Source: a phage. From it: a stretch of 64,000 bases of DNA. The notes under the pieces are model-generated. The model ran no database searches and had not been told where the DNA came from. It was given only the letters and a program-made list of their open reading frames with translations. The DNA is taken from sequence record PZ445536.1; one strand, given 5' to 3'. This document shows positions 7,140 to 53,355 of this stretch, one piece after another (positions within the stretch are counted from its first letter, which is position 1; every line of letters begins with the position of its first letter). The translations under genes were made by a program, and so were the position numbers.

Positions 7140-8727
<1,588 letters not shown>

Positions 8728-8734
8728 AATAAAA

Positions 8735-8750
8735 TGGGCCTTGCGGCCCA
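8735..8750 (-). promoter_or_regulatory. stem-loop (GGGCC-GCAA-GGCCC) between an AAGGAG Shine-Dalgarno and the denA start codon
   Basis: On - strand: TAAGGAG-hairpin-UUUUAUU-AUG; hairpin would bring SD near AUG (split-RBS architecture). Confidence 0.4.
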
Positions 8751-8754
8751 CTCC

Positions 8755-9933
8755 TTAAAAATATTTTTTAAAACTCATCATAACTTTATCATCAACATCA
8801 TTATCAATCTGTGCAACAAGGTAAGATGACAGTTCTACTTCTTGTGGCGCGGATTGAACATTATCAGAATTAAGATATTCACGAATCCAAGGATATGGAT
8901 GTTTAACCGGAGCATCGATAATTGGGCATGGAAGACCACACTGTTTCATACGAGATACAGTTAAGTAATCAATAAAGCTCCACATGCTATTTGTATTTAA
9001 TCCAGGAACATCGCCATCTTTAAATAAATGAACTGCCCAATCTTTTTCTTGGCGGTTAACTTCCATGAAAATATCAACTGCTTCTTGTTCACACTCTTGA
9101 GCAATTTTAACCCATTCATCGCCATCAGTACCAGATTGAAGTTGACGAATAATATATTGTGTACCTTTAAGATGAAGCTGCTCATCACGTGCAATGAACT
9201 TCATAATCTTTGCATTGCCTTCCATAATTTCCATGTTCTTATGGAAGTTAAAGGTACATGCGAAAGATACATAAAAACGAATAGCTTCCAATGCGTTGAT
9301 TACATGCAAACAGAGGTAAAGAGATTTCATTAGCTCACGCTTCCAATATGTCTCATGCTCAATAGCATCTTCAATAACATCTTCGTCTGCATTAATTTCT
9401 TTTTGGTATTCGATATCAGCTTTAGCGTTTTCCCAATAACGAGTTTTAGTCAGAACATCATCATAATAACGTCCAATGGATTCAGCACGTTTCATAATAG
9501 CTTCATCTAATACAATCTCATCAAATACCTTCGATGGATCAGTATAAAGATTTCGCATGATATGTGTATATGAACGAGAGTGAATAGTTTCACTAAAAGT
9601 CCACGTAGCAACCCATGTATCAAGGCTTGGGTCTGAAATTAATGACATAAGTACAGCAGACGGCGCACGACCCTGAATGCTATCCAAAAGTGATTGATAC
9701 TTCAGATTATTAGTAAAAATATTTTGCTGATACTGAGGAAGCTTATTAAACTGTGCAGCATCCATCATTAAGTTTACTTCTTCAGGACGCCAGAAAAATG
9801 ATAATTGCTTTTCGGTTAAATCTTCAAAAACTTTATGGCGTTGAATATCATAACGCGCAATACCAAGACCTGAACCAAAAAACATAGGTTCTTTTAAAAC
9901 ATCAACTGGATTTGTATTAAAAACTGTGCTCAT
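8755..9933 (-). CDS. nrdB: ribonucleotide reductase small subunit
   Basis: 392-aa uninterrupted ORF; class Ia R2 ferritin-like features; T4 NrdB synteny; no intron. Confidence 0.9.
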   Translation of the reverse strand: MSTVFNTNPVDVLKEPMFFGSGLGIARYDIQRHKVFEDLTEKQLSFFWRPEEVNLMMDAAQFNKLPQYQQNIFTNNLKYQSLLDSIQGRAPSAVLMSLISDPSLDTWVATWTFSETIHSRSYTHIMRNLYTDPSKVFDEIVLDEAIMKRAESIGRYYDDVLTKTRYWENAKADIEYQKEINADEDVIEDAIEHETYWKRELMKSLYLCLHVINALEAIRFYVSFACTFNFHKNMEIMEGNAKIMKFIARDEQLHLKGTQYIIRQLQSGTDGDEWVKIAQECEQEAVDIFMEVNRQEKDWAVHLFKDGDVPGLNTNSMWSFIDYLTVSRMKQCGLPCPIIDAPVKHPYPWIREYLNSDNVQSAPQEVELSSYLVAQIDNDVDDKVMMSFKKYF

Positions 9934-28200: not shown

Positions 28201-28481
28201 AAATCACCGGATCTGTGAGCGGTGCTACTGCAGGGTCGAATATAGCCAAAACTTCTTCAGACGGTGCTCATACCCATACTTGGTCTGGTACTACAAGCAC
28301 TACAGGTAACCATGCTCACACAGTAGGTATTGGTGCTCATACCCATACTGTAGGTATCGGTGCTCATACCCACACGGTAGCAATTGGCTCGCATGGTCAT
28401 ACTATCACTGTAAATAGTACAGGTAATACAGAAAACACGGTTAAAAACATCGCTTTTAACTATATCGTTCGTTTAGCATAA
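25287..28481 (+). CDS. 37: gp37 long tail fiber distal subunit (receptor-binding tip with His-box)
   Basis: 1064 aa; C-terminal HxH repeats ([36 protein letters not shown]) typical of the T4-type gp37 needle; shares VFEVGD..HFYSQR box with gp34. Confidence 0.9.
27972..28031 (+). repeat. tandem 30-nt coding repeat ([10 protein letters not shown] x2, partial third) in gp37
   Basis: Direct repeat read from sequence with synonymous differences. Confidence 0.75.
28323..28403 (+). repeat. tandem 27-nt coding repeat x3 (VGIGAHTHT His-box units) in gp37
   Basis: gtaggtattggtgctcatacccatact repeated with 2-3 substitutions. Confidence 0.8.
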
Positions 28482-28486
28482 GGAGA

Positions 28487-28500
28487 GGGGCTTCGGCCCC
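28487..28500 (+). other. stem-loop GGGGC-UUCG-GCCCC between genes 37 and 38
   Basis: 5-bp G/C stem with UUCG loop; weak U-tail, likely a processing/stability hairpin rather than a strong terminator. Confidence 0.45.
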
Positions 28501-28508
28501 TTCTGAAT

Positions 28509-29060
28509 ATGAAAATATATCATTATTATTTTGACACTAAAGAATTTTACAAAGAAGAAAATTACAAACCGGTTAAAGGACTCGGTCTTCCTGCTCATTC
28601 AACAATTAAAAAACCTTTAGAACCTAAAGAAGGATACGCAGTTGTATTTGATGAACGTACTCAAGATTGGATTTATGAAGAAGACCATCGCGGCAAACGA
28701 GCATGGACTTTTAATAAAGAAGAAATTTTTATAAGTGACATTGGAAGCCCGGTTGGTATAACCTTTGATGAGCCCGGCGAATTTGATATATGGACTGATG
28801 ACGGTTGGAAAGAAGACGAAACATATAAACGCGTTTTAATTCGCAATAGAAAAATTGAAGAATTATACAAAGAATTCCAAGTTTTAAATAATATGATTGA
28901 AGCTTCTGTCGCGAATAAAAAGGAAAAATTCTATTATAAAAACCTTAAGCGGTTCTTTGCTCTTTTAGAAAAGCATGAGCATTTAGGTGGTGAATTCCCT
29001 TCATGGCCTGAAAAAGAACGGAAACCTTGGTATAAGCGTTTATTCAAGCATTACGTATAA
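28509..29060 (+). CDS. 38: gp38 tail fiber assembly chaperone (T4-type)
   Basis: 183 aa (T4 gp38 length), immediately downstream of 37. Confidence 0.88.
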   Translation: MKIYHYYFDTKEFYKEENYKPVKGLGLPAHSTIKKPLEPKEGYAVVFDERTQDWIYEEDHRGKRAWTFNKEEIFISDIGSPVGITFDEPGEFDIWTDDGWKEDETYKRVLIRNRKIEELYKEFQVLNNMIEASVANKKEKFYYKNLKRFFALLEKHEHLGGEFPSWPEKERKPWYKRLFKHYV

Positions 29061-53349: not shown

Positions 53350-53355
53350 TTGAAT

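Follow-up and report, generated by a model that had tools for sequence, protein, structure and literature searches.

In the 64,000-nucleotide (nt) stretch of DNA analysed here (sequence record PZ445536.1, the window in what follows), a hairpin lies on the minus strand between nrdB and denA and separates the denA start codon from the Shine-Dalgarno (SD) sequence proposed for it. The window is a Tequatrovirus (T4-like) segment, and denA encodes endonuclease II (EndoII), the nuclease which starts the destruction of host DNA and which is toxic to cytosine-containing DNA. We propose that the folded hairpin brings the two parts of a split ribosome-binding site (RBS) together, as the initial annotation of this junction had suggested, and we estimate a probability of about 0.7 that such hairpin-bridged initiation is the main function of the element. 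The comparisons described below argue that the feature is a real, conserved and functional RNA element and not an artefact, and denA is very probably the third split RBS after those of genes 38 and 25, that is a further case of a known mechanism and not a new one.

The nrdB–denA junction

On the minus strand the junction reads UAU UUU UAA-GGAG-U-GGGCC-GCAA-GGCCC-A-UUUUAUU-AUG (Table 1), and it is identical to that of T4 from UAAGGAG to AUG. The order of parts given in the initial annotation, namely an nrdB stop codon overlapping AAGGAG, then a GGGCC-GCAA-GGCCC stem-loop, UUUUAUU and AUG, was verified with its coordinates on this strand. No stop/start overlap of nrdB and denA is seen in the window, where the two genes lie 27 nt apart. 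We counted 23 nt between the end of GGAG and the denA AUG, where the initial annotation gave about 25 nt; the aligned spacing, measured against the 9-mer UAAGGAGGU, is 21 nt. We found no canonical SD 5–10 nt upstream of the denA AUG or of an alternative start, the finding that the initial annotation had set against its own proposal, and the in-frame GUG at 8751 has zero spacing to the SD.

Table 1: Parts of the nrdB–denA junction, the flanking genes and the corresponding gene 38 site, in window positions.
Feature	Position	Strand	Remarks
nrdB stop codon UAA	8757–8755	−	overlaps the SD
UAAGGAG, proposed denA SD (AAGGAG at 8756–8751)	8751–8757	−	sequence; predicted duplex with the 16S rRNA 3' end −8.7 kcal/mol versus +2.8 kcal/mol for the tail
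Hairpin UGGGCC-GCAA-GGCCCA, 6-bp stem, GNRA tetraloop	8735–8750	−	folds, covariation, RNAalifold
Hairpin 5' arm U-GGGCC	8750–8745	−	
Hairpin loop GCAA	8744–8741	−	
Hairpin 3' arm GGCCC-A	8740–8735	−	
U-rich tail UUUUAUU, 7 nt, SD-free	8728–8734	−	doubles as U-tract in T4-type phages
Probable denA start codon AUG	8727–8725	−	
In-frame GUG, 8 codons upstream of AUG	8749–8751	−	denA start in T4 RefSeq; overlaps the last G of the SD
denA	8317–8727	−	EndoII, GIY-YIG, 136 aa from AUG 8727; stop codon 8319–8317
nrdB	8755–9933	−	class Ia ribonucleotide reductase beta subunit, 392 aa, intronless; open reading frame (ORF) list and annotation of near-identical phages
Gene 37/38 junction	28479–28511	+	UAAGGAG on the gene 37 stop; hairpin AGGGGC-UUCG-GCCCCU at 28486–28501; tail UCUGAAU; gene 38 AUG at 28509

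Conservation and folding of the element

DenA homologues are present in 1264 phage records. From 17 annotated loci and 51 IMG/VR loci (given L numbers where they have to be told apart) we compiled 26 distinct nrdB–denA junction sequences with nrdB directly upstream and a gap between the genes, and in all 26 of them SD, hairpin, short tail and AUG follow each other in that order. The collection spans Tequatro-, Mosig-, Dhaka-, Gelderland-, Winkler-, Gapriver-, Karam- and Marfavirus together with unclassified Klebsiella, Serratia and metagenomic phages. A comparison with the denA upstream regions of relatives had been recommended in the initial annotation, and what it revealed is that the tripartite arrangement is kept while the stem covaries. 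In two T4-like phages from IMG/VR nrdB and denA overlap directly (L048, ATGA at 1201–1204; L060, TAATG at 1183) and SD and hairpin are both gone; these are natural deletion mutants of the SD–hairpin module. The Krischvirus relatives (RB49-like; L013, L061 and L063) have denA behind a different gene, with a GGCGGGA-GAAA-UCCCGCC hairpin and a U-rich tail about 60 nt upstream and then a separate canonical SD (GAGGAAAGGA) beside the denA start, which is the conventional order of the same parts. Aeromonas relatives show an ATGA overlap between denA and the upstream ORF, and denA overlaps rnlA in many relatives.

At or just past the nrdB stop codon, 0–4 nt before the stem, AAGG(A)(G) is found in nearly all 26 junctions, and the linkers and tails around it vary. 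The predicted duplex with the anti-SD has −2.4 to −9.3 kcal/mol for the 5' flank of the hairpin and is never better than −0.1 kcal/mol for the tail, and a usable SD, as judged from predicted pairing with the 16S rRNA 3' end, was found in the tail of none of the 26. Stems of 4 to 7 bp and tails of 5–10 nt occur, the linear aligned SD–AUG spacing is held at 19–22 nt, and the distance from hairpin to AUG is confined to 5–10 nt across the junctions. With the hairpin excised, the aligned spacing has its mode at 5 nt (12 of 27 junctions, the 26 of denA plus that of gene 38; range 2–10 nt), which is also the value for denA of the window. An aligned spacing of about 5 nt is reportedly the optimum in E. 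coli, as Chen et al. are said to have found in 1994. Compared with its relative L025, L006 has 2 more bp in the stem, and the linear spacing grows from 21 to 25 nt with unchanged flanks.

The stems differ in sequence yet pair: we observed GGGCC/GGCCC, GGGAC/GUCCC, GGGGC/GCCCC, GGGAGAC/GUCUCCC and GAGGGC/GCCCUC. In the stem alignment 94.9% of the cells are paired, and four of the six stem pairs show compensatory changes on both sides (GC/AU/CG/UA). Cells changed on both sides number 25, compared to 7.3 expected from shuffles, and none of 500 shuffles reached the observed count, a statistic that overstates the significance because related junctions are not independent. Sliding the 3' partners by 1–3 columns makes both pairing and covariation break down, and RNAalifold independently predicts the same helix. 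T4-type phages have the loop GCAA or GUAA, most of the others have UUCG, and UUAG, UUUG and a pentaloop occur once each. Read on the minus-strand transcript, and only there, they belong to stable loop classes, an indication of a function at the RNA level, on the mRNA.

Structure prediction, proposed as a check in the initial annotation, gave the hairpin as the dominant structure in every context folded (39, 81 and 111 nt). The 39-nt context has −16.4 kcal/mol (z = −3.9; 1 of 200 shuffles folds as well), and the isolated hairpin about −11.6 kcal/mol. A scan of the whole window with Rfam 15 matched no family at gathering score.

In order to see how unusual the architecture is, we scanned both strands of the window with strict settings, that is an SD core followed within 4 nt by a hairpin (5 bp or more, with 4 or more GC pairs, and a loop of 4–5 nt), a tail of 4–11 nt and ATG. 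Exactly two sites were found, the nrdB/denA and the gene 37/38 junctions. Shuffled sequences had a mean of 0.065 sites and at least two sites in none of 200 cases, the shuffles being mononucleotide within 200-nt blocks and not dinucleotide-preserving.

Comparison with gene 38, gene 25 and other T4 hairpins

On the plus strand of the same window, gene 38 (MKIYHYYF...) starts at 28509, after the end of gene 37 at 28481. This junction shares with that of denA the 27-nt gap, the UAAGGAG on the upstream stop codon, a 6-bp stem directly after it with five inner G-C pairs, a stable tetraloop, a 7-nt tail and the start AUGAAA. A covariance model made from the 26 denA junctions only gave 51.1 bits for denA of the window and ranked the 37/38 junction second with 37.7 bits (E about 1.5e-4, with E-values that are roughly calibrated), well above all remaining matches in the window. 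The two sites also differ. The loop is UUCG in gene 38 and GCAA in T4-type denA, whereas most non-Tequatrovirus denA junctions have UUCG as well. The denA tail is U-rich and terminator-like with a score of +24.7, compared to −21.4 for gene 38 (d'Aubenton-Carafa formula; these and the following terminator scores have relative value only). Furthermore, the minus-strand denA belongs to the prereplicative nrd cluster, gene 38 is a plus-strand gene of tail-fibre assembly, and the split SD of gene 38 is experimentally supported while that of denA is predicted. As a separate observation, the 37/38 junction resembles the UUCG-type denA consensus of other genera more closely in sequence than does the denA junction of T4.

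According to the review by Uzan and Miller, RNA structure between SD and AUG cuts the spacing from 22 to 5 nt in gene 38 and from 27 to 11 nt in gene 25, mutations destabilising these structures reduce initiation, and outside the close T-even phages the gene 25 arrangement is not conserved (PMC3014915). The split RBS as a rare T4 architecture, as the initial annotation had put it, is thus described for genes 38 and 25 (PMC3014915), and the denA geometry is identical to that of gene 38. Gene 25, at the gene 26–25 junction (Nivinskas 1999, Malys and Nivinskas 2009, as summarised in PMC3014915), resembles denA in its distal SD, in the hairpin between SD and start and in a conservation that covers close T-even phages and does not reach distant relatives, but has a 7-bp AU-rich stem (CUCAAAG/CUUUGAG), the loop AGUU, the SD GAGG and an 8-nt tail; moreover, its element lies inside the overlapping end of gene 26 and that of denA in an intergenic gap. 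Our literature search on T4 initiation found genes 38 and 25 described and the denA arrangement not mentioned (PMC3014915 included), although an earlier mention elsewhere is possible.

The census was extended to 100 kb of T4 (24,000–123,899), giving about 164 kb together with the window. The strict scan of the T4 sequence found no further site, and the denA covariance model found nothing below E = 0.07 in it. A relaxed scan recovered the gene 25 site at 115828–115811; an earlier relaxed scan had passed over denA, the AAGG within its hairpin having been taken for an SD close to the start. Three other matches in T4 were judged false positives by their coordinates in the T4 annotation table, as two fall within coding regions and one in the tRNA cluster. 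In these approximately 164 kb of T4-type sequence the architecture occurs only at gene 38, gene 25 and denA.

Other hairpins of T4 share single traits with the element. Stable C(UUCG)G or GNRA intercistronic hairpins of T4 mRNAs were reportedly described by Tuerk et al. in 1988, and ordinary T4 intercistronic hairpins have stem and loop classes like those of denA and the same position just past a stop codon. In the window, stable hairpins with mostly UUCG loops stand at the minus-strand gene ends 38038–38024, 37075–37058, 36846–36829, 34389–34374 and 15897–15880. There the AUG follows 12–20 nt past the hairpin and has an ordinary SD-like sequence near it, whereas in denA the sole SD is 5' of the hairpin. 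Several of these gene-end hairpins share the motif AAGGAAAAUUAUG and score as non-terminators, and they may be mRNA-stabilising or processing elements. The RBS-sequestering hairpins of T4 e, soc and I-TevI and of mobE of Aeh1 (PMC3014915, PMC2988022) likewise control initiation by a local mRNA structure. In these, SD or AUG lies inside the stem and translation is blocked, whereas the conserved stem of denA includes neither of them and is expected to favour initiation.

Proposed mechanism and alternative explanations

We propose that in transcripts reading through from nrdB the 16-nt GC hairpin with its stable tetraloop would fold autonomously and the 3' end of 16S rRNA would pair with UAAGGAG immediately 5' of the stem. 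The closed stem would then bulge out, and as the AUG is located 7 nt past its 3' base the effective distance from SD to start would be about 5–7 nt instead of 21–23 nt, allowing the 30S subunit to place the AUG in the P site. The ribosome would thereby use the distal SD, and the hairpin would enhance initiation. As denA would have no usable SD unless the hairpin folds, EndoII synthesis would depend on RNA structure. With its SD placed on the nrdB stop codon, denA initiation probably also interacts with ribosomes terminating on nrdB, by occlusion or hand-over, and this overlap together with the ATGA and TAATG relatives makes a coupling of denA to nrdB translation plausible. The proposal bears on how T4 holds a toxic nuclease at an appropriate level, tied to nrdB expression. 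Split RBSs are known from two T4 genes, denA being the sole further candidate in the sequence scanned, and the 26 junctions represent a natural allelic series for how the 30S subunit accommodates a folded spacer.

Several points weigh against this proposal, in addition to the relatedness of the junctions mentioned above. In T4-type phages only, AAGG extends across the loop and the 3' arm 11 nt before the AUG and could be a weak SD if the hairpin melted, and weak SDs are present in some relatives (UAAAGAG in Serratia phage 92A1, UAAGAG in L053 and L054). The minimum free energy (MFE) structure of the T4-type junction extends the stem by four weak GGAG:UUUU G-U pairs (about −4.8 kcal/mol), which must open for the SD to be used. 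The overlaps in L048 and L060 suggest that denA can be translated by direct coupling alone. Our literature search found no toeprint, reporter, native EndoII N-terminus or 3'-end map for the junction, and also no T4 ribosome-profiling or 3'-end dataset. The records of Yersinia phage fPS-90 and Klebsiella phage PhiKpNIH-6 label the hairpin 'terminator', its T4-type score (U-A closing pair included) falls within the +14 to +41 of the terminator-looking hairpins of the window, and a function at the transcript end could account for some of its conservation.

These last points lead to the question whether the hairpin is mainly or only an element of the end of the nrdA–nrdB message, a leaky terminator or attenuator or a barrier to 3'-exonucleases, with its position between SD and AUG being incidental. 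Like intrinsic terminators, the T4-type element has a GC-rich stem-loop with a U-rich tract (UUUUAUU) immediately after it and a comparable score; hairpin and U-rich tail precede the separate canonical SD in the Krischvirus relatives, stable UUCG hairpins are common at T4 gene ends, and T4 mobE, located nearby, has a documented weak intrinsic terminator (PMC2790892). In contrast to intrinsic terminators, the stem is short (5–6 bp) and the 7-nt U-tract is interrupted and not conserved in relatives. Their scores range from −43 to +23, and many lie clearly below zero (Mosigvirus −43, Gaprivervirus −33, L034 −31, L053 −38), yet hairpin, SD and short tail all persist there; in L053 and L054, which still have the hairpin, the tail is GUAAAGCU. 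The constrained distance from hairpin to AUG, the tails without SD and the complete lack of a hairpin in relatives with ATGA or TAATG overlap also speak against a transcript-end role. In addition, the gene that follows in the same orientation, 7 nt past the element, has no SD of its own, and no promoter motif between hairpin and AUG or within nrdB. No exact late (TATAAATA) or MotA-box motif was found on the minus strand from 10100 to 7100, the sole near match being TATAAAT at 8608 inside denA, and sigma-70-like matches near denA were only at background level. Thus denA must be read from nrdB transcripts passing through the hairpin, and efficient termination would silence it. The built-in terminator scan of the window did not list the denA hairpin, probably because the G-T-tolerant extension of the stem uses up the T run. 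As far as the comparison of relatives can tell, termination is not the conserved function, and we consider it unlikely that a transcript-end role is the main or only one; the two roles are not mutually exclusive, a partial terminator or 3'-stabiliser role in T4-type phages is possible beside the split site, and the existing 'terminator' annotations may tell only half. One step further, the same 27 nt could form a bifunctional cassette, in which hairpin and U-tract terminate or pause some of the nrdA–nrdB transcription and the hairpin becomes, on read-through, the obligatory scaffold between SD and AUG. We mention this tentatively and with some doubt. If true, read-through, RNA folding and nrdB translation would together determine the nuclease dose, and 'UAAGGAG, tetraloop hairpin, 7 nt, AUG' would be a portable module which T4-like phages reuse for coupling the next gene at a low, fixed ratio, which would explain the near-identity of the nrdB/denA and 37/38 junctions.

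Three other explanations concern translation itself. Ribosomes ending at the nrdB UAA might simply reinitiate at the AUG 27 nt further on, with AAGGAG not acting as a conventional SD and the hairpin shortening the path or holding the ribosome. The overlap of stop codon and SD, the direct coupling of nrdB and denA without SD or hairpin in L048 (ATGA) and L060 (TAATG), the ATGA overlap with the upstream ORF in Aeromonas relatives and the operon-style denA–rnlA overlaps would fit, but AAGG(A)(G) is conserved just past the stop in non-coding sequence whose linkers and tails vary, in the gene 38 twin the distal SD is reported to be the one used (PMC3014915), and a 27-nt gap with a hairpin of about −11 kcal/mol would be a poor substrate for simple post-termination diffusion. 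We therefore hold reinitiation without an SD to be quite improbable. Hardly credible, in our view, is a repressor helix, in which the U-rich tail would pair with the purine-rich SD, extend the hairpin and sequester the SD in order to keep the toxic nuclease low. A lower stem is indeed part of the MFE structure of several phages (GGAG:UUUU in T4-type phages, UAAGG:CUUUA in Mosigvirus), but it consists mostly of G-U and A-U pairs, is weaker than the predicted SD:anti-SD duplex and has a similarly weak predicted counterpart in gene 38. When the tails were shuffled with their composition kept, 70% or more of the shuffles paired with the SD as well or better at 15 of 23 junctions, so that SD sequestration does not appear to be selected, and we rejected the sequestering helix on this ground. 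Finally, the GUG of Table 1 might be the real start of a protein of 144 aa, which would turn the hairpin into coding sequence (codons 1–8) and leave no split RBS. This start is used in the T4 RefSeq coding sequence (137517–137951, 435 nt; start at L002 4952), the Dhakavirus records WG01 and IME540 annotate an AUG at the equivalent position, and being located 3 nt past the nrdB stop it could permit reinitiation. Against it, only T4-type phages, Dhakavirus, Serratia phage 92A1 and L047 have an in-frame start codon at −24, in-frame stops lie between this position and the AUG in L010, L036 and L051, and several other junctions have no start codon at all in this interval. Homology, in tblastn searches of relatives and in the protein alignment, begins at M1-K2 of the AUG form, the crystal-structure construct (PDB 2WSH) and biochemical constructs fuse tags to MKEIATEY, and published work uses the corresponding E118 numbering; in addition, a GUG at zero SD spacing at the foot of a stable hairpin would be a poor initiation site. 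As the 8-codon extension is not conserved across the junctions, we rejected the GUG start, which we regard as very improbable, and keep the hairpin-bridged site with AUG 8727.

The start of denA and its annotation

The 136-aa ORF from AUG 8727 (MKEIATEY...) is identical to T4 EndoII. Based on the conservation across the junctions, this AUG, and not the GUG, is most probably the denA start, which argues for changing the T4 reference from GUG and 144 aa to AUG and 136 aa. In Klebsiella phage PhiKpNIH-6 (L010, 679–1109) denA is cut to a 45-aa 'hypothetical protein' in the annotation, and in Cronobacter phage Pet-CM3-4 (L011, 701–1108) it is unannotated, while tblastn finds a full-length homologue with approximately 70% identity in both. 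The likely reason is that gene callers find no SD beside the true AUG, and the split SD may explain why they mis-start, truncate or miss denA in several phage records.

Gene context and further observations

The window is 99.9% identical to Escherichia phage vB_EcoM-101117BS1 over the queried 901 nt, a query that matches 741 phage records. The order on the minus strand is nrdA (12249–9985), nrdB, denA and rnlA (gene 63). Between 8755 and 9984 the window differs from T4 (L002 4956–7417): nrdB is intronless and without I-TevIII, and the nrdA–nrdB gap of only about 51 nt contains neither mobE nor nrdB.1. The nrdB stop codon is in frame with denA and no other stop lies between them (8727–8757, minus strand), so read-through of the UAA would give an NrdB–EndoII fusion with a 9-residue linker.

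A hairpin (G/A)AGGACUCC-UUCG-GGAGUCCUU followed by UUUU is present twice on the minus strand, at 911–890 and at 53351–53330, about 52 kb apart. Both copies resemble intrinsic terminators and may represent a repeated terminator module.

Between denA and rnlA, Karamvirus, a Serratia phage and one Dhakavirus have an extra ORF of about 205–215 aa which overlaps the denA stop codon (L009, 1108–1722; L011, 1108–1722; L012, 1114–1722; L018, 1108–1755). It is annotated as a homing endonuclease in three of the four records and as a hypothetical protein in that of Dhakavirus.

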